This document shows positions 9,859-32,675 of a stretch of DNA of 41,785 nucleotides, one piece after another. Where the stretch lies: the IMG/VR virus record IMGVR_UViG_3300046615_000228, positions 1 to 41,785 of that record. One strand, 5' to 3'. The stretch is from a virus. Every line of letters begins with the position of its first letter. Positions within the stretch are counted from its first letter, which is position 1. Both the position numbers and the translations under genes were made by a program. The notes under the pieces were generated by a model. The model worked only from the letters and a program-made list of their open reading frames with translations, had not been told where the DNA came from and did not search any database.

Positions 9859-11105
9859 CAGCGAAGCCTCTTGTAGTTCAGAGGCTCAGACTTCACCGGA
9901 TCGCGGTGAGCCATTGCCATGTAGCGGAAGGCGTCAGCGCCGTGGCTGGCCCAGTCGTGGACCGGGGTCGCCTTGAACTCGCCCAGCTTGTCGTTGAACT
10001 CGCGGCGGTAATTCATCAGCGCCGCTATCCCGTCCTTACACTTCTCGGCATCGAAGTAGCAGCGACTAAACAGCATCCGCGCCGCGTTGATGCCCTGCTC
10101 CAGTCCGTCCCGGTCCAGCACCCGCATCCGCACGCCCTGACCGCTGGCGACCTCTACGATGCTCTTACCGGTGCCCAACTCGCGCCCCGCAGCATCGTGC
10201 GGAACGTGGTGGTCTCCGTAGCTGTAGCCCTTGCCAGCCAGCACGGACAGGTAATGCGTGATCGGCTCGCCACTGTTGGAGTAGTAATCGATCAGGTGAA
10301 TCTCACGTCCCACGTTCTGGAAGAACCAGACGCAGGTTGAATCACCAACGCCCAAGTCCCACGCGGTATGCACCAGCGCGGACCTGTCATACGGGACCCC
10401 ACACACGCGGCCATCTTGCTTGGCCTGCGCAATCTCTGTCGCGTAGATCGCACCCAGTGCCGGAACATCAAACGCGCACTCAAACTCCTGCGCGAACTGC
10501 TCAGGCGTCATCTGTGACCGCGCATCCGCCAACTCGGACGGGTCCACAATCCCGGTCTCCGAAGCCTTTAGCTCCTGATAGAACCAATCCGGCGACGACT
10601 TCGCCTGCTCGGCCAGCGCGTGAAAGTGATTCTTGCCTTTTGGCGTGCCAATGAAGCTGGCCCACCCTTTCCGATCCGTCAGCAGGGGGCGGATGATCTC
10701 GCCCCACACGCTGGGCCGCATATCGCCGTATTCGTCCAGCACAACGCCGTCTAAGTACAGGCCGCGCAATGCGTCCGGGTTGTCCGCGCCAAAGAGACGG
10801 ATGCGCGCCCCCGTCACCAGCTCCACAGATAGCTCAGACTCCATCACCTTCGCTGCGATGGGCTGCGCGTAGTGCTTCAGGTAGTCCCAGGCGATGGCCT
10901 TGGCCTGCGCGTAGTACGGCGCAAGGTAGGCATAGCGGGCATTGGGCAGCTTGCACAGCGCCGCACGCTTCACCAGCTCGTTAATCTCGCGAACCGTCTT
11001 ACCAAACCGCCGATGCGCCACCGTGCAAGCCCACCGCTCGGCTCGGTCGTGGTACGGCAGCGATTGCGGACGCGGACGGTAGTCCAGCGTGATTAGTCGC
11101 GCCAT
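9858..11105 (-). CDS. terL: Terminase large subunit
   Basis: Walker A-like HRRFGKT and Walker B-like VVLDEYGD, followed by a C-terminal nuclease-type region. Lies upstream of the portal gene. Start chosen at ATG 11105 (MARLITLDY...); the alternative track start at 11180 overlaps the terS frame. Confidence 0.9.
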   Translation of the reverse strand: MARLITLDYRPRPQSLPYHDRAERWACTVAHRRFGKTVREINELVKRAALCKLPNARYAYLAPYYAQAKAIAWDYLKHYAQPIAAKVMESELSVELVTGARIRLFGADNPDALRGLYLDGVVLDEYGDMRPSVWGEIIRPLLTDRKGWASFIGTPKGKNHFHALAEQAKSSPDWFYQELKASETGIVDPSELADARSQMTPEQFAQEFECAFDVPALGAIYATEIAQAKQDGRVCGVPYDRSALVHTAWDLGVGDSTCVWFFQNVGREIHLIDYYSNSGEPITHYLSVLAGKGYSYGDHHVPHDAAGRELGTGKSIVEVASGQGVRMRVLDRDGLEQGINAARMLFSRCYFDAEKCKDGIAALMNYRREFNDKLGEFKATPVHDWASHGADAFRYMAMAHRDPVKSEPLNYKRLR

Positions 11106-11353
11106 GCCAGCACGATCTCGCCGTCCTTGCCCTCGCCGCCAATCGTCAGCGGAAGCAATTTCGGGTAAATCGTCGCCCAAAATGCCTTTTCGTTCTGCGG
11201 GTCAGCCTTGGCCCACGCAAGCAGTCTAGTAGCGCCGCCAAGCCCTTCGGCCGCCTGAGCGATAACTTCCTTCGCTTCCTTGCCGAGCTTGTTAGGCGAG
11301 CCCTTAGGCCGCCCCTTGCCCTTCTTGGCTTCCAGGTTCTCCGGATTGGCCAT
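11093..11353 (-). CDS. Putative terminase small subunit
   Basis: 86 aa with a basic N-terminus (KKGKGRPKGSPNKLGKE), immediately upstream of and overlapping terL. Assigned by position and motif only. Confidence 0.55.
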   Translation of the reverse strand: MANPENLEAKKGKGRPKGSPNKLGKEAKEVIAQAAEGLGGATRLLAWAKADPQNEKAFWATIYPKLLPLTIGGEGKDGEIVLAWRD

Positions 11354-11510
11354 TTTCGTTCCCTAATTTATTTGAGCTGGCCTGCGCCTTGGCTCCGAGG
11401 TTGGCCGTCCCTGGCCGTGGTTCGTCCTTAACTCGCCTGTCCGGGAAAGGCCAATTAGCCTCTACCAGGGCAGTGTTTTCCTTGCGCCTGCCGCTTCCCT
11501 TGCCACTCAT
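11304..11510 (-). CDS. Hypothetical small protein
   Basis: 68-aa ORF starting MSGKGSGRRKENTALVEANWPFPDRR. The KGS...NW pattern recalls small conserved proteins found upstream of terminase genes. It overlaps the terS start by 50 nt. Confidence 0.4.
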   Translation of the reverse strand: MSGKGSGRRKENTALVEANWPFPDRRVKDEPRPGTANLGAKAQASSNKLGNENGQSGEPGSQEGQGAA

Positions 11511-11580
11511 AGAGCGTCTCGCTCATCCCACCCGCACGGAAACTCCGCGTTCTCGGGCCATGCGCCTTGGTTGGTCATCA

Positions 11581-11784
11581 CTACCTCAGCGCGCAGTCCG
11601 CGTACTGCTGAACCACTTGGCTGTACCAAATGGCGAAGTCGTCCGCGCTATTGTTCTCAGGGGGCGCTATCAGCTCCGGGCACGCGGCCCTTGCGGATGG
11701 CTTCGTTAACGGCATCGACCTGCACCCGGATAGCATCAGCAACAGGAGCAGGCAGATTGCAGCCGGACGGGTTAGCTCTAACAA
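11581..11784 (-). CDS. Outer-membrane spanin (Rz1-like lipoprotein), overlapped architecture
   Basis: Signal peptide with lipobox LLLLLMLSG-C and a Pro-rich mature part. It starts inside the i-spanin gene in another frame and extends past that gene's stop. Confidence 0.8.
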   Translation of the reverse strand: MLELTRPAAICLLLLLMLSGCRSMPLTKPSARAACPELIAPPENNSADDFAIWYSQVVQQYADCALR

Positions 11785-12040
11785 CGGTCACCACCTTTGG
11801 CGGATGCTTTGCCAGCTCGTCTAGCGCGCTACGGGCTGCGTTACGTTCGGCCTGCGCCTTGTCCCGCTCGGCTACTGCGGCCACTAGCGCCTTGTTTTCT
11901 TTGGCTAGCCACTTGGCGCGCTCGGCGGTAACGCCGTGCCCATAGGCCCATAAGTAGGCCCCGAATGCCCAGGCGGCCAGCCCCGCCACTGCGAAGATAT
12001 GCAGCCAGTAGCGGCGCAACAGGGCTAGGAGGATGGTCAC
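11657..12040 (-). CDS. Inner-membrane spanin (Rz-like)
   Basis: 127 aa. N-terminal TMD (LHIFAVAGLAAWAFGAYLWAY) followed by a coiled coil (AERAKWLAKENKALVAAVAERDKAQAERNAARSALDE). Contains the Rz1-like ORF. Confidence 0.8.
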   Translation of the reverse strand: MTILLALLRRYWLHIFAVAGLAAWAFGAYLWAYGHGVTAERAKWLAKENKALVAAVAERDKAQAERNAARSALDELAKHPPKVVTVVRANPSGCNLPAPVADAIRVQVDAVNEAIRKGRVPGADSAP

Positions 12041-12138
12041 TTACTCTTTCCGCCGTACTTGTGCTGCATACAGACGCCCCAGCACAGCAGGCCCGTGAAG
12101 TAGAGAACCGGGATCAGCAGGATCAGCGGGCTATTCAC
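12037..12138 (-). CDS. 33-aa membrane peptide coupled between the protease and Rz genes
   Basis: MNSPLILLIPVLYFTGLLCWGVCMQHKYGGKSK. The GTG start overlaps the protease TGA (GTGA), and its TGA overlaps the Rz GTG (GTGA). Confidence 0.4.
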   Translation of the reverse strand: MNSPLILLIPVLYFTGLLCWGVCMQHKYGGKSK

Positions 12139-12704
12139 GCGATTTCCTTCCAATCCTTAGCCGTGAACGACAGCGGATACAGCACCACCATCGAGAACGT
12201 GAACGGCCCGTTTATCCACATCTTTCCGGCCGAAACCACGCCGACGATGCGGCCGTCATTGCCAAACATGGCGGCTCCTGAATCCCCGCCGAAGCTGTGC
12301 CCGTCCACCCAAATCTCTTGCAGGTACACCCGCGAGACGTAGCCCTCGCGGTAAACGCGATCGTTAGCCGCGGGCATCCCAAGCCACCGCACGCGGTCGC
12401 CAGTGTTGGGGCCTCGCCCTACCTGCGCCCAATGCTTAAACCGCATCGTGACCCGGACCAGTACATGGTCGTGGCCGTCCTTGATGATCTTCAGCGCCCG
12501 CGCGGGCAAGCCGTTGATCGCCAGGATTGGGCCGCTATTCGTGCAGTGCTCAGCCGTCAGGACAATGTCCTTGCCGACCGCTGTCCCCGAACATATCCCG
12601 CCGCCCTCTAGATCAAGCCTTAGGGCCGTATCGCGGAAGGATGCCGGGTGCGCGTCTGCACATCCCGCCAGAAGGAAGGACAGTGCGAGCGCGCAAATTT
12701 TCAT
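12135..12704 (-). CDS. Lipoprotein trypsin-like serine protease (S1 family) inside the lysis cassette
   Basis: 189 aa. Lipobox LSFLLAG-C. Catalytic His in LTAEHC, Asp in GHDHVLVRV, Ser in GGDSGAAMF. Confidence 0.85.
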   Translation of the reverse strand: MKICALALSFLLAGCADAHPASFRDTALRLDLEGGGICSGTAVGKDIVLTAEHCTNSGPILAINGLPARALKIIKDGHDHVLVRVTMRFKHWAQVGRGPNTGDRVRWLGMPAANDRVYREGYVSRVYLQEIWVDGHSFGGDSGAAMFGNDGRIVGVVSAGKMWINGPFTFSMVVLYPLSFTAKDWKEIA

Positions 12705-13012
12705 TAGTCCGTCCCGCCCGCCTTGATCGTGTCACTGTCCAAATCGAACGGAGGCGGCTCGATGCCCTTTGCGCGCATCAGCCCTTCCAGTCGGTAGATA
12801 TGGCGGACCATGCGGCCCTCGCGCTGCTCTAGGCCCGTTAACCGGGTCTGCACGCGTTCAACCTCTTGCCGCAGCAGGTCGATAACGGTCACTTCGGCGC
12901 CAGTCGCGGCGCTCTCTACCTTCCGACCGCCCTTGCCCTTGAAGTAGCCGCCCACGCCTGCCACTAGCCCGGCAGCCCCTGTGCCGACCAATGCCCAATC
13001 AATTGCCATCAC
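12704..13012 (-). CDS. Holin candidate (single Gly-rich TMD plus a coiled-coil tail)
   Basis: 102 aa. TMD IDWALVGTGAAGLVAGVGGYF, then a charged helical region. Coupled to the endolysin stop (GTGATG) and the protease start (TAATG). No other holin-like ORF was seen near the endolysin. Confidence 0.5.
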   Translation of the reverse strand: MMAIDWALVGTGAAGLVAGVGGYFKGKGGRKVESAATGAEVTVIDLLRQEVERVQTRLTGLEQREGRMVRHIYRLEGLMRAKGIEPPPFDLDSDTIKAGGTD

Positions 13013-13440
13013 GCGCCCTCAAACAAGGCGCGCTCTGCGGCCCGTCGTTTCACCAAACCCGGCAAGACCCTTCCGCCGCCTTTGTTCCAGCGTGAGAATT
13101 GGTCCGCCGCCCCCTTGTAATCCCCAGCGTTCAGCAGTCGCAGCAGCGTGGACTTGCGGAACGCCTCTATGCCGATGTTGTAGGCCAGCGATGCACAGGC
13201 GGCCATCTGGCCGGCCGTCAGGTCAACGCGCACCAGCGCATCCACCCGCGCACCGAAGCCCCGTAGATCGCGCTCTAGGCGGCTCTCTGCCTGTTCCTGC
13301 GTCCACGTCATGCCCAGTCGCACATCGGGGCCGGTTGATCCGTAGCCGATTGTTGGGACGCCTGCCGGACACAGGTACGCGGACAGATTGCACCCCTCGC
13401 TCCGCTTCACTAGCGGCAGCGCGAGTTGCAGCCAGTCCAT
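13009..13440 (-). CDS. Endolysin, GH24 (T4/P22-type) lysozyme
   Basis: Catalytic pattern E-x8-C-x5-T (RSEGCNLSAYLCPAGVPTIGYG). Family-typical NIG..AF..STLL..LN.GDY..AA..F..W...GG....GL..RR..E..LF. Confidence 0.9.
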   Translation of the reverse strand: MDWLQLALPLVKRSEGCNLSAYLCPAGVPTIGYGSTGPDVRLGMTWTQEQAESRLERDLRGFGARVDALVRVDLTAGQMAACASLAYNIGIEAFRKSTLLRLLNAGDYKGAADQFSRWNKGGGRVLPGLVKRRAAERALFEGA

Positions 13441-13577
13441 GCCGTTCCTATGTGTGCCCTATGGGCTGGATAAATTGCTTGCGGGCCTTTCGGCACTCCC
13501 CCGATACACACGGGCCGCTGACCAACGGGGGCACAAGCGGACTGATGCGTGTCTAACCACGCCGCCGCAAGCAAAAC

Positions 13578-13790
13578 TCAATTCAACGCCCTATCGGGCA
13601 CCTGATTCTCATAAGCATCAGCCGCCGCGCGGAGCATCTTCACCACCAGACTGGTGGGCAGCTTCGGGCCAACGTAGCTTGCGGCTCCGTCCTCGGGAGC
13701 GAATATCACGAACGCCGGGAAGCCTTCTTCCTGCGCCCAGCTACAAAGGTCGCAGGCTTCGTCTAGCCACTCAGCGCTTGCGCTTGGCAC
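13578..13790 (-). CDS. Hypothetical acidic protein (about 70 aa)
   Basis: GTG at 13790 overlaps the end of the HslV-like gene. Sequence PSASAEWLDEACDLCSWAQEEGFPAFVIFAPEDG... Hand-counted GC3 is about 69%. The upstream part of the 123-aa track ORF is an Arg-rich shadow frame. Confidence 0.45.
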   Translation of the reverse strand: MPSASAEWLDEACDLCSWAQEEGFPAFVIFAPEDGAASYVGPKLPTSLVVKMLRAAADAYENQVPDRALN

Positions 13791-14217
13791 GCTTGGGCTC
13801 CACTGCCATCGTCTCGACCGGAGCCGATGTGTACGTGTCAACACTGGCCGCAGCGTGGACGGCCTCCTCTGACGTAGCCTGGAAGTGGCGCATGGCGCAT
13901 ACGGCAGCCTGCGCGCCGGAGCCGATAGCCACCGGCCCCAACTCCTCAACCCACGTCCAGTGCTTGTCCGTGACCGAATAGGACCTGCCGTCCGCCTTAG
14001 CGATCAGCAGCGAGCTATTCGGAATCTTCGGCGGCTTGCCCTTCGCGCCCTTGGCTAGCCAGTTGAAGGCGCGGTTAATCTCGTCAGCCGTCCCGCATCC
14101 ACCCATCACGCCGCCGCACGGAAGCCGGAACAGCTTGTGAACACGTGACTTGTTTCCACCCCACGTGGCCTGAGTATCGCTTGCCATCACCCCGTTGTCG
14201 TAGGCGATGGTTGTCAT
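13771..14217 (-). CDS. HslV-like N-terminal-nucleophile (proteasome beta-type) peptidase
   Basis: 148 aa. MTTIAYD... (Thr2 nucleophile) aligns by eye with E. coli HslV: MTTIV..., SDTQAT vs GDGQAT, HKLF vs KKVRRL, GGCGTADE vs GGTADA, VAIGSGAQAA vs IAIGSGGPYA. Confidence 0.85.
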   Translation of the reverse strand: MTTIAYDNGVMASDTQATWGGNKSRVHKLFRLPCGGVMGGCGTADEINRAFNWLAKGAKGKPPKIPNSSLLIAKADGRSYSVTDKHWTWVEELGPVAIGSGAQAAVCAMRHFQATSEEAVHAAASVDTYTSAPVETMAVEPKRAKRKR

Positions 14218-14372
14218 GCGGTCCTCTTAAATTAGCGCCCGGCCTGTTCTAGCTTGCCGCCGGGGTCTAGTTAACCGGAAGGAGATTTCGACAGAGGCCG
14301 TGCTCGGGCTAAGGGGCGTTGTCTCCCCTCCAAAGTCATTAACACACGCGTTTCCGGGAACGGGGCGTTCGT
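14218..14372 (-). promoter_or_regulatory. Putative late-promoter / antitermination region (PR'-like)
   Basis: 155-bp non-coding gap between the Q-like gene and the first late gene. Minus-strand TTAACT-17-TAGAAC (plus strand 14269-14274 and 14246-14251). Hairpins AGGGG-N8-CCCCT, plus CCGTGC-N6-GCACGG just upstream of the gap, inside the end of the Q-like gene (about 14386-14403). RBS AAGAGGA before ATG 14217. Confidence 0.3.
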
Positions 14373-23377: not shown

Positions 23378-24103
23378 ATGGCTCTAATCGAAATCAAGCA
23401 TCGCTACTCGGGAGCCGTGATCTTCGGCGGCGAGTACGCGACGGTTCTGGCGTGCTTGCTTGCGGCGGTTGCCAGCGGCGCGAACCTGTACGGCGCGGAC
23501 CTGTACGGCGCGAACCTGTACGGCGCGGACCTGTACGGCGCGGACCTGTACGGCGCGGACCTGGGCGGCGCGAACCTGTACGGCGCGGACCTGTACGGCG
23601 CGAACCTGTACGGCGCGGACCTGGGCGGCGCGAACCTGCGCGGCGCGAACCTGTACGGCGCGGACCTGGGCGGCGCGAACCTGCGCGGCGCGAACCTGTA
23701 CGGCGCGGACCTGGGCGGCGCGAACCTGTACGGCGCGGACCTGTACGGCGCGGACCTGGGCGAAAAGCCCGAACAACAGCTTTGGTTCGTGCAAACCCGA
23801 ATCCTCCCCTCTGACGGGGACGTGATCGGCTGGAAGAAGTGCATGGGTGGCGTGCTCGTCAAGCTGCGCATTCCCGCCGAGGCCAAGCGTTCTCACGCCT
23901 TCGGCCGCAAGTGCCGCGCTGAGTACGTCGAAGTTCTGGAAGTCATCGGCGCGGATGTTGGTGTTACGGACGCGCATGGCCCAAAGACCGAATACCGCGC
24001 CGGCGAAATCGTGCGCCCCGATTCGTTCTGCGAGAACTGGCAGGACGAGTGCAGCAACGGAATCCACTTTTTCATCACTCGCGCCGAAGCGGAGGCTTAC
24101 TGA
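23378..24103 (+). CDS. Pentapeptide-repeat protein (19 perfect A[ND]L[YGR]G units) with a C-terminal globular domain
   Basis: 241 aa. GANLY/GADLY/GADLG/GANLR units from residue 34 to 128. C-terminal domain ...GWKKCMGGVLVKLRIPAEAKR...CSNGIHFFITRAEAEAY. First gene downstream of the PL-like promoter. Confidence 0.9.
   Translation: MALIEIKHRYSGAVIFGGEYATVLACLLAAVASGANLYGADLYGANLYGADLYGADLYGADLGGANLYGADLYGANLYGADLGGANLRGANLYGADLGGANLRGANLYGADLGGANLYGADLYGADLGEKPEQQLWFVQTRILPSDGDVIGWKKCMGGVLVKLRIPAEAKRSHAFGRKCRAEYVEVLEVIGADVGVTDAHGPKTEYRAGEIVRPDSFCENWQDECSNGIHFFITRAEAEAY
23477..23761 (+). repeat. 19 tandem 15-bp units GGCGCG[A/G]ACCTG[TAC/GGC/CGC]
   Basis: Read directly. All synonymous positions are invariant across units. 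There is also a higher-order 45-bp repeat (…GANLYGADLGGANLR x2). Confidence 0.95.
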
Positions 24104-31474: not shown

Positions 31475-31689
31475 GTGACCTATGGCTTGAACCCGCCGAG
31501 GTCGTGGAACTGACCGCTAAGAAGCGGTGGGCGGCGCAGTGTCGCGAGCTGGCGGCAATGGGCGTACCGTTCATGCCGAACGCCGTAGGGCGGCCCCTGG
31601 TCGAACGTGCGGCGGTGTGCAAGGCGACCGCGAAGCCGAAGGCCAAGCGCGGCCCTAACTGGGATGCCTTGAGGAAGGACGCGGCCTAA
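31471..31689 (+). CDS. DUF4224-like protein, probable excisionase / directionality factor
   Basis: LEPAEVVELTAKKRWAAQCRELAAMGVPFMPNAVGRPLV pattern. ATGA-coupled upstream and TAATG-coupled to the integrase. Confidence 0.65.
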   Translation: MSDLWLEPAEVVELTAKKRWAAQCRELAAMGVPFMPNAVGRPLVERAAVCKATAKPKAKRGPNWDALRKDAA

Positions 31690-32675
31690 TGGGACGCAAG
31701 CGCACCCGCGACAAGCATCTGCCCGCGAACATGCAGCGCAAGCACGGGGCGTACTACTTCGTGAAGGCGGGCAAGTGGAATCCGCTGGCGAAGGACTACC
31801 CCTCGGCGCTGGTGAAATATGCCGCGCTGATCGGTGCCCCGCCGAAGGTCCGCACGGTGAAGGATGCGGTGTGGCACTACATAGAGGCCAGTACCGGACG
31901 ACTCGCGGACAAGACGCTGGCGGGCTACCGGATTTCAGCGGCCAACGTCTGCACGGTGTTTGGCGGAATGGCGCTGGAAGACGTGACGGCGGCGGACGTG
32001 TATCGCTACCTCACCGAAAAGGGCAACGTACAGGCAAACCGCGACCGCGCCCTGTTGTCTGCCGCCTACAGCGAGGCCCGCCGCATCGGCGCGTTTCCGA
32101 AGGCATCCGACGATCCCACCAAGGGGCTGGAGTACCGCAACCCGGAAAAGCCGCGCACGCGCTATGTGACGGATGCGGAGCTGGACGCGATCATTGCGGC
32201 GGCCAGTCCCAAGCTGGGCTGCATCGCCCGCTTCATCGAACTGACCGGGATGCGCCAGGGCGATGCGCTGGGCGTGAAGCTGGCGGACCTAGACGACGAC
32301 GGCTTCACGTATTGGAACAGCAAGGGCAAGAAATGGCAGGGGCTGGAGTGGTCGCCGGAGCTAACCGCCACGGTCGAGGACGCCAAACGCCTATGGCGTC
32401 GGTTCGGGCGGGAGTGGCTGTTTGAGTCGAACCCGAAAGGCAAGCACAAGGAGCGAGGAATCGGCCCGTACACGCCGAGCGGACTGCGCGCCCTATGGCG
32501 GGTAGCGCGGACCAAGGCGGGGCTTACAGACGTGCGCCTGCACGATCTGCGCGCTAAGGCGGGCAGTGACGTAGGGAGCAACGAGGACGCGCAACGGCTG
32601 CTTGGGCACGCCGATGGCAAGGTGACGCGCCGACACTACAGGCGCAAGGTGGAGCGGTCGAAGCCTGTCCGCTGA
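31689..32675 (+). CDS. int: Tyrosine integrase
   Basis: 328 aa. R...HDLRAKAGSDV...LLGHADGKVTRRHY catalytic signature. N-terminal SAM-like domain. Confidence 0.95.
   Translation: MGRKRTRDKHLPANMQRKHGAYYFVKAGKWNPLAKDYPSALVKYAALIGAPPKVRTVKDAVWHYIEASTGRLADKTLAGYRISAANVCTVFGGMALEDVTAADVYRYLTEKGNVQANRDRALLSAAYSEARRIGAFPKASDDPTKGLEYRNPEKPRTRYVTDAELDAIIAAASPKLGCIARFIELTGMRQGDALGVKLADLDDDGFTYWNSKGKKWQGLEWSPELTATVEDAKRLWRRFGREWLFESNPKGKHKERGIGPYTPSGLRALWRVARTKAGLTDVRLHDLRAKAGSDVGSNEDAQRLLGHADGKVTRRHYRRKVERSKPVR

Follow-up and report, generated by a model that had tools for sequence, protein, structure and literature searches.

A predicted lipoprotein serine protease is encoded within the lysis cassette of a temperate phage, and comparison with related phages makes the gene well supported, at the level of sequence, as a conserved feature of such cassettes. 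The phage is represented by IMG/VR virus record IMGVR_UViG_3300046615_000228, and the window analysed here is the whole of that record (positions 1 to 41,785; 41,785 nucleotides, nt). The protease gene lies between a holin candidate and the spanin genes, and its product belongs to peptidase family S1. The protein may assist lysis or release as an accessory enzyme that acts on the periplasmic side of the outer membrane, a reading to which a probability of about 40% is assigned.

Membership of the protein in family S1 (clan PA) follows from a profile match, the order His-Asp-Ser with a GDSG motif, and a chymotrypsin fold. It scores 37.9 bits against Pfam Trypsin_2 (PF13365, cut-off 27.6) and 31.3 bits against Trypsin (PF00089, cut-off 20.6), and the precomputed Pfam domains of its homologues agree with this assignment. 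The motifs TAEHC (residues 50-54), DHVLV (79-83) and GDSGAA (140-145) contain the catalytic triad H53/D79/S142, with S142 placed within G140-D141-S142-G143. The N-terminus is MKICALALSFLLAG-C15, and the signal peptide MK-ICALALSFL-LAG-C15 ends in a lipobox (LLAG-C15) that conforms to the bacterial lipoprotein pattern [LVI][ASTVI][GAS]C; the protein has no propeptide. A first-pass annotation of the window, made by a model from the DNA letters alone, had noticed this lipobox and a complete S1 triad in an open reading frame (ORF) of 189 amino acids (aa), and both were borne out. Structure prediction, which the same annotation had recommended, returned an AlphaFold model with the double beta-barrel of chymotrypsin, a predicted local distance difference test (pLDDT) of 94.7 and a predicted template-modelling score (pTM) of 0.87; confidence was lower only at the signal peptide and at a linker of ~10 residues after Cys15. 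By its place in the sequence, the Cys38-Cys54 pair corresponds to the 'histidine loop' disulfide, which would be sensible in the periplasm. With an intact S1 fold and triad, the modelled protein looks active.

A Foldseek search of the PDB gave 1514 matches at E<=0.001, and the best 50 of these are S1B and S1C proteases with template-modelling (TM) scores of 0.6-0.71 and identities of 15-22%, including Spl, V8, Esp, exfoliative toxin, glutamyl endopeptidase, DegS, DegP, DegQ, HtrA1 and Rv3671c. Sequence matches in the PDB include glutamyl endopeptidase, which is the best of them (1p3c, 2.5e-11), and DegP-like proteases (5e-10), and the alpha-lytic protease chain is absent both from the best 60 PDB sequence matches and from the best 50 Foldseek matches. 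The Pfam scan found neither a PDZ nor a cell-wall-binding domain in the protease, which ends at residue 189 directly after the protease fold. Some other identities were considered and rejected. The lack of a PDZ domain rules out a member of the HtrA/DegP (S1C) family; the signal peptide and lipobox, together with a location outside the head genes, rule out a capsid-maturation protease; and a substitute for the o-spanin is ruled out by the separate Rz1-like ORF that overlaps Rz and by the 175-aa enzyme domain of the protease. Lineages vary in the loop that follows the VVS motif and in the residues aligned with chymotrypsin 189-192, and an attempt to read P1 specificity from the residue aligned with chymotrypsin 189 was abandoned because that residue varies (H, D, N, Q, L and others).

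The protease belongs to a large family. A hidden Markov model scan of 1.84 billion representative proteins found 424 clusters (50% identity) at E<=1e-30, with proteins of roughly 180-220 aa; the best 150 have lengths of 165-259 aa. A further 42 homologues, of 174-219 aa, came from a word-indexed search, and D141 is unchanged in all of them. Columns C38, S39, A51, H53, C54, D79, G140, S142, G143 and G151 are invariant in the alignment of the 42, and the lipobox residues G14-C15 are kept in at least 90% of them. Of 91 genomic loci, 90-91 retain the triad residues H53, D79 and S142, both cysteines of the Cys38/Cys54 pair, and G140, D141 and G143 (one ORF is partial), and the lipobox cysteine is found in 78 (~86%), the remainder carrying ordinary signal peptides. 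An inactive pseudo-protease is ruled out by the invariant triad.

The family is a new, unnamed subfamily of S1 (Trypsin_2) proteases; the NCBI name for the one genomic member is 'trypsin-like serine peptidase'. It is almost confined to metagenomic phages with a GC content of 49-65%. When the protease and three divergent family members were compared by tblastn with 50,697 GenBank phage records, the only match was a weak one (30% identity, 1e-5) to a 236-aa trypsin-like peptidase of Rhizobium phage RHph_TM3_3_14B, the gene for which lies ~3 kb downstream of the lysozyme gene and therefore does not share the arrangement. A one-genome-per-species scan with a narrow alignment found only a prophage of Lysobacter koreensis (strain CCUG 55491, protein WP_386811185.1), a result that reflects the narrow pattern and is no measure of rarity. 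A metagenome scan for closer relatives, aimed at the conservation of a 33-aa ORF next to the protease gene, found none above about 50% identity. In a literature search of incomplete coverage, no paper was found that describes an S1 protease as part of a Gram-negative lysis cassette. The hosts are likely Xanthomonadales-like, given the relatives in Lysobacter and Stenotrophomonas.

Eleven related contigs of 56-59% GC (L014, L016, L017, L020, L027, L033, L044, L060, L065, L068 and L073) have in-frame stops inside the protease ORF, for example at 4977-5600 of L014. All of these stops are TAG, and the endolysin matches in the same contigs are short fragments. A transfer RNA (tRNA) with anticodon CUA lies ~1-1.5 kb downstream of the protease in nine of the eleven (6723-6797 in L014). 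Together the TAG stops and the CUA tRNA suggest that these phages encode amber suppression or recode their lysis genes. The phage under study has no tRNA and no in-frame stops.

The link between the protease and lysis genes was assessed in two sets of loci. Eleven lineages came from general collections of genomes and metagenomes, in which no prior selection for viruses had been made and in which proteins were looked up by exact match. A scan of IMG/VR supplied 111 relatives, of which 80 loci were fetched and dereplicated at 80% protease identity into 57 clusters. All 11 lineages from the general collections are phage-like regions directly upstream of terminase and portal genes, and the protease adjoins an endolysin in nine of them. 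Among the 57 clusters, a GH24 endolysin is encoded on the same strand within 600 nt upstream in 30, further upstream (to 2 kb) in six and downstream in one; 15 have adequate flank and no GH24, and five have too little flank to judge. GH19 fragments were found ~270 nt upstream of the protease in two of the 15. A GH24 or GH19 endolysin is thus present within 2 kb on the same strand in 39 of 52 dereplicated lineages, 32 of them with the endolysin no more than 600 nt upstream. The first-pass annotation had named, among others, two findings readable from sequence that would speak against a lysis protease, catalytic residues that are not conserved and homologues that occur mainly outside lysis cassettes; the opposite was found on both counts.

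The association extends to the spanins. Most lipoprotein-type protease genes are followed by candidate i-spanins with a transmembrane domain (TMD) and a coiled coil, and by candidate o-spanins from several unrelated families, which are overlapping or embedded lipobox ORFs. At least 14 lineages have a 4-nt overlap between the stop codon of the protease and the start of the i-spanin. In the L. koreensis prophage the order is holin (PF16082), GH24 endolysin with an N-terminus that is SAR-like (signal-anchor-release) and hydrophobic by inspection, 44-aa TMD ORF, protease, Rz-like gene and terminase. Loci L002-L005 and the P0023 contig share this layout, and L100 adds an HNH insert to a similar one. 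Loci L101 and L097 combine a GH19-like endolysin, recognised by sequence motifs and with no Pfam match, with a homologue of the 101-aa protein that precedes the protease in the phage under study. The order in L008 is TMD protein, protease, 80-aa TMD protein and GH24; L010 has only a holin-like protein beside the protease, and no recognisable lysis gene was found beside it in L007.

Some of these loci encode a right-handed beta-helix protein of 342-381 aa (PF13229, Pel9A-like), located at 8060-9088 in L005, 3405-4550 in L097 and 2276-3421 in L099. In L005 and L097/L099 the gene comes directly after the spanins and precedes the terminase, and 342-aa ORFs, identified by length alone, occupy the same position in several other protease-bearing loci. 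The beta-helix protein, which is absent from the phage under study, could be a tailspike that has been displaced or a further enzyme associated with exit.

The partners of the protease are mosaic. The family co-occurs with SU10-, HK97- and P22-type portals. Its partner endolysins are soluble, SAR or C-terminally anchored GH24 enzymes or GH19-like enzymes (SAR, anchor and GH19 assigned by inspection or motif), its partner holins are of at least three types (Phage_holin_2-type, GTA_holin_3TM-type and an unnamed 101-aa type), and several spanin families accompany it. A constant protease in a constant slot amid such changing partners is expected of a module tied to the lysis step and not to the phage backbone.

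The phage contig itself has 61.8% GC and is complete or nearly complete. It encodes an integrase (31689-32675), a repressor-like gene, O-like and DnaB-like replication genes, a terminase and an SU10-type portal. The lysis cassette reads, on the minus strand, from the GH24 endolysin through the 101-aa TMD protein, the protease and a 33-aa TMD ORF to Rz/Rz1 (Table 1). Base-by-base inspection gave overlaps of 1-4 nt at all four junctions: GTGA between the endolysin stop and the start of the 101/102-aa ORF, TAATG between the stop of the latter and the protease start, GTGA between the protease stop and the 33-aa ORF (GTG at 12138), and GTGA between the stop of that ORF and the Rz start (12040). No sigma-70-like promoter or intrinsic-terminator-like site was found across 11000-14300, and the GC content of the protease gene (0.60-0.64) equals that of its flanks. 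The protease gene is a member of a contiguous endolysin/holin/spanin block. This agrees with the first-pass annotation, which had placed the protease between a holin-like gene and Rz/Rz1 spanins, followed by a 33-aa TMD peptide and chained translationally to its neighbours by the overlaps TAATG, GTGA and GTGA; both spanin ORFs match PHROG Rz-like spanin families, and the 33-aa ORF exists with its single hydrophobic stretch.

Table 1. Genes of the lysis cassette and their positions in the window.
Feature	Coordinates	Strand	Evidence
GH24 endolysin, 143 aa	13009..13440	-	PF00959 1.8e-47; phrog_7 9.5e-62
Holin candidate, 101/102 aa	12704..13012	-	TMD and position; no Pfam, PHROG or NCBIfam match
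Predicted lipoprotein S1 (Trypsin_2) serine endopeptidase, 189 aa	12135..12704	-	Pfam, triad, lipobox, AlphaFold
Single-TMD ORF, 33 aa	12037..12138	-	Fills the protease-Rz gap; analogous peptides in relatives
i-spanin (Rz-like), 127 aa	11657..12040	-	PHROG Rz-like spanin families, best 6e-5
o-spanin (Rz1-like), 67 aa, lipobox L-S-G-C	11581..11784	-	phrog_456 5e-5

The other cassette proteins are recognisable to different degrees. By inspection, the GH24 endolysin lacks an N-terminal SAR or TMD. The i-spanin is Rz-like, carries a TMD at its N-terminus and contains a coiled coil; L097 and L101 encode relatives of it. The Rz1-like ORF uses a different frame of the 3' portion of Rz and ends 76 nt beyond the Rz stop; it also matches phrog_2425 (function unknown; 6e-6) and, weakly and below cut-off, NCBIfam P2_Rz1/LysC (E 0.054), and similar overlapping or embedded lipobox ORFs occur in related loci. 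The 101-aa protein has a Gly/Ala-rich N-terminal TMD, a basic patch (KGKGGRK), a coiled coil and a conserved C-terminal ...GG(T/S)(D/E). With its 28 homologues it forms a family of at least 28 members that has no Pfam, PHROG or NCBIfam model. The protein always lies directly downstream of an endolysin, be it GH24, GH19-like or lambda-R-like (the last two by motif), and before either Rz or the protease. As the family follows three endolysin types, and the only other TMD proteins of the cassette are the 33-aa ORF and Rz, the 101-aa protein is the best holin candidate. From sequence and position, the family is a candidate undescribed holin or lysis-control family. The holin-like label that the gene received at first pass is plausible by position and was an over-reading in that no family match supports it.

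The 33-aa ORF (VNSPLILLIPVLYFTGLLCWGVCMQHKYGGKSK) is preceded by a Shine-Dalgarno-like GAAGGA and fills the 94-nt gap between the protease and Rz exactly, and an alternative 38-aa version starts at TTG 12153. Public gene calls omit both this ORF and the Rz1-like ORF. An open frame of 94 nt is not significant in itself, with ~0.2 expected by chance (an estimate). Comparable ORFs recur in relatives: in 24 of 91 related loci a single-TMD ORF of 23-38 aa begins only a few bases from the protease stop, and other lineages have TMD ORFs of 37-44 aa directly upstream of the protease instead. One group of these peptides ends in C-K-Y-G-K/E-P-C-E, and its divergent members have a nonsynonymous divergence (pN) of ~0.2 against a synonymous divergence (pS) of 0.6-0.85, indicating that the peptide ORF of that group is a selected gene. 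The 33-aa peptide shares with the relatives' peptides only a TMD, its position and a K-Y-G motif, so that homology to them is only suggested, and no downstream peptide was found in the two closest relatives with context (65% and 59% protease identity). The 33-aa ORF is probably a real gene, and it is speculative to regard its product as a partner, modulator or inhibitor of the protease.

A possible course of events can be outlined for an accessory lysis or release enzyme. The protease, whose fold and triad suggest an active trypsin-fold serine endopeptidase, would be made from a late lysis transcript shared with the endolysin, the holin-like protein and the spanins, as the gene overlaps imply. 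It would be exported by the Sec pathway before the holin triggers and, given its lipobox, lipidated at Cys15 through the Lgt/LspA/Lnt pathway. Probable sorting by Lol to the inner leaflet of the outer membrane is suggested by Ala at +2 and Asp at +3, since these do not form an E. coli-type (Asp+2) retention signal. From there, on a tether of ~10 residues, the enzyme might cleave envelope proteins, the best guesses being those that tie down or stabilise the outer membrane (Lpp/OprI-, Pal- and OmpA-type) or other outer-membrane-proximal proteins. The first-pass annotation had likewise suggested a fourth lysis component that might cleave Lpp, OmpA or other envelope tethers, or else an exclusion or processing factor. 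There is precedent for the cleavage of a tether, as trypsin releases Braun's lipoprotein from the sacculus. Such cleavage could make the endolysin and spanin steps faster or more complete, or could help virions escape debris. The module appears to have moved among unrelated lysis cassettes, always between endolysin/holin and i-spanin, and the adjacent small single-TMD peptide may, speculatively, be its partner or modulator. A more specific version is doubtful on present evidence: many Gram-negative phages would possess a fourth, proteolytic lysis function, in which a lipoprotein S1 protease pre-positioned on the outer membrane cuts host proteins that anchor or stiffen the envelope, thereby enabling spanin disruption and virion release, possibly checked or partnered by an inner-membrane peptide; this would be a step that the model of holin, endolysin and spanin lacks.

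Several observations weigh against a role in lysis of this kind. Thirteen of the 52 lineages, mostly signal-peptide variants, do not have the protease beside a recognisable endolysin, and the neighbours of most endolysin-less loci are terminase or unannotated genes. A Pfam census of the neighbours in 22 loci without GH24 found hardly any other endolysin family, indicating that these loci genuinely differ, save three that later yielded GH19 fragments. Moreover, Stenotrophomonas maltophilia prophages have cassettes with the same holin-like gene and no protease. In these prophages the 101-aa homologue follows an endolysin that is lambda-R-like by motif (no Pfam match), and Rz (PF03245) and LysC (PF23793) come next, in some cases behind a small insert. 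No substrate can be read from the protease sequence. Little should depend on tethers to the peptidoglycan after its destruction by the endolysin, so that cutting them offers no clear benefit. The variation of the pocket positions among lineages would fit diverse or lineage-specific targets better than one conserved tether. The predicted sorting to the outer membrane depends on an E. coli rule that may not be the rule of Xanthomonadales-like hosts.

Together with the S. maltophilia prophages, other related cassettes bear on how far the protease is needed. In L097-L099, of which L097 is a close relative of the phage under study, the 101-aa homologue and an Rz whose N-terminus is nearly identical to that of the phage under study flank a different, non-lipoprotein Trypsin_2 gene (217 aa). 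The slot at the holin/spanin junction can thus be empty, hold the lipoprotein protease or hold another exported protease. Judged by these related cassettes without it, the protease is an accessory and not a core or essential lysis gene; such natural relatives argue against essentiality and say nothing on accessory effects.

Destruction of a receptor or surface protein is an unlikely alternative, although it accounts for part of the evidence. Late in infection the protease would degrade a receptor or periplasmic machinery, such as the type IV pilus or parts of TonB-dependent receptors, so that progeny are not lost on debris or vesicles, or late superinfection is blocked, in the manner of the lipoproteins Llp of T5 and Cor. 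An activity of this type would be in keeping with a protease that is optional among close relatives, has variable substrate-pocket positions and, from the gene overlaps, would be expressed in time with release; its lipoprotein format also resembles that of known exclusion lipoproteins. Yet these are encoded near tail or early genes and are not coupled to spanins. Llp (T5) and Cor (phi80/N15) are small phage lipoproteins that act on outer-membrane proteins and block receptors by binding; unlike the phage protease they have no protease fold, and they share with it neither sequence similarity nor genomic position. The PHROG scan found no Cor or Llp match for the protease, and the only Cor match in the cassette (E 0.086) is to the Rz1-like ORF. 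Neither NCBIfam nor PADLOC assigned the protease, the 101-aa protein or the 33-aa ORF to a family; the best PADLOC score of the protease, E 0.007-0.03 to the protease part of RT-Protease_XI, does not place it in an exclusion or defence family. A periplasmic enzyme would also reach only the inner face of outer-membrane receptors, and the tight 4-nt overlap with the i-spanin start, seen in many lineages, points to lysis itself.

It is less likely again that the protease regulates or processes the lysis proteins of the phage, by cleaving the periplasmic part of a holin or antiholin, a SAR endolysin, a spanin or the small membrane peptides and so setting the timing of lysis or activating a step. 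Precedents exist in DegP, which influences the timing of phage lysis by degrading the T4 antiholin RI, and in M. tuberculosis MarP, which activates the hydrolase RipA, and Rv3671c (MarP), DegS and DegP are among the structural matches of the protease. Its constant position among lysis genes, the frequent TMD peptides of 23-44 aa before or after it and the purifying selection on one peptide group are also consistent with regulation. Against this, the holin, endolysin and spanin families differ completely among lineages, so no common phage substrate is evident, and cassettes with the same holin-like gene function without the protease. Few residues of either the holin-like protein or the 33-aa peptide would face the periplasm under the positive-inside rule.

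The possibility that the protease is a second cell-wall hydrolase, a peptidoglycan cross-link endopeptidase that complements the muramidase as in bifunctional endolysins or the S1-type lytic endopeptidases of Lysobacter, is very improbable. Bacteriolytic enzymes with the S1 fold exist, the protease adjoins the endolysin in most lineages, and relatives occur in a Lysobacter prophage. Nevertheless, its nearest relatives in sequence and structure are the protein-cleaving S1B and S1C proteases, alpha-lytic protease is not among the best matches, and no cell-wall-binding domain was detected by Pfam. D,D cross-links of Gram-negative bacteria are not typical S1 substrates, and Sec export ahead of holin firing would risk premature lysis. 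There is equally little to recommend a lysogenic-conversion moron that occupies a permissive spot in the cassette and benefits the lysogen through stress tolerance, virulence or exclusion: the phage is temperate, and the holin/Rz junction of relatives holds other inserts (an HNH gene, a 77-aa ORF and an opposite-strand ORF), but the protease gene has no promoter or terminator of its own, matches its flanks in GC, overlaps its neighbours by 1-4 nt on both sides and occupies the same slot, coupled to the i-spanin, across many unrelated cassettes. The residual probability belongs to an explanation that has not been thought of.

Among characterised proteases, the best structural matches (Foldseek E ~1e-8, TM 0.6-0.68) are the staphylococcal S1B enzymes (SplA-D, V8/GluV8, Esp and exfoliative toxins) and the Bacillus glutamyl endopeptidase. 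Like the phage protease, these are small single-domain proteins of ~200 aa with a chymotrypsin fold and a His-Asp-Ser triad, although identity is only 15-19%. S1B enzymes are secreted, soluble proteins of Gram-positive bacteria, the activity of which needs a free, precisely processed N-terminus. In contrast, the predicted N-terminus of the phage protease is a lipidated cysteine, and its gene resides in the lysis cassette of a Gram-negative phage. The periplasmic HtrA family (DegP, DegQ, DegS, AlgW and MucD; S1C) is similar in the protease domain (PDB profile 5e-10, TM up to 0.71). Unlike HtrA proteins, the phage protease has only 189 aa and no PDZ domain, would be a lipoprotein instead of a soluble or TM-anchored protein, contains the Cys38-Cys54 pair and is encoded by a phage. 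M. tuberculosis MarP (TM ~0.68) is likewise a membrane-anchored periplasmic S1 protease, as is predicted for the phage enzyme; MarP is a host stress-response gene product with a transmembrane-helix anchor, whereas the phage protein would have a lipid anchor.

Resemblance to the o-spanin lies in the lipobox, the shared cassette and, often, the coupling of the protease to the i-spanin, with sorting to the outer membrane predicted. The o-spanin is short, proline-rich and fusogenic, whereas the protease is an enzyme domain, and the separate Rz1 here and in most relatives indicates that the protease accompanies the o-spanin. Mycobacteriophage LysB is an accessory enzyme that a lysis cassette encodes besides holin and endolysin and that breaks the connection of the outer layer to the wall (PMC8309991). 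The likeness is a functional analogy only: LysB is a mycolylarabinogalactan esterase with a lipase/cutinase fold, a lipid ester substrate and mycobacterial hosts, and its function has been shown experimentally, whereas the S1 protease is known from its sequence.

What distinguishes the protease cassette from other Gram-negative lysis cassettes, of which it is a variant, is one more component, an enzyme that is exported. The three-step model of holin, endolysin and spanin or disruptin is considered essentially complete, and an exported protease family in a fixed slot points to an additional envelope activity during exit. Recurrence of the arrangement in dozens of uncultured phages suggests an undescribed accessory lysis step. 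If a tether or a receptor is indeed the target, the protease would identify host envelope proteins that limit lysis or the escape of progeny. It would also provide a new enzymatic tool to weaken Gram-negative envelopes, with relevance to engineered phages and lysins.

Other genes of the window were noted in passing. Directly upstream of the lysis cassette is a gene for a 148-aa homologue of HslV / proteasome-beta-like N-terminal-threonine peptidases (13771-14217, minus strand; phrog_1040, 1e-30), which starts MTTIAYDNG. It is separated from the endolysin by a conserved gene for a small soluble protein of 70 aa (13578-13790, minus strand) that contains CDLCSWAQEEGFPAFVIF and resembles, by eye, proteins of 67-73 aa at the same position in L002, L005, L097 and L101. 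Finally, several PHROG families of unknown function match a 241-aa ORF in the immunity/early region (23378-24103, plus strand) over repeated stretches, three in the case of phrog_7713; the protein looks internally repetitive.

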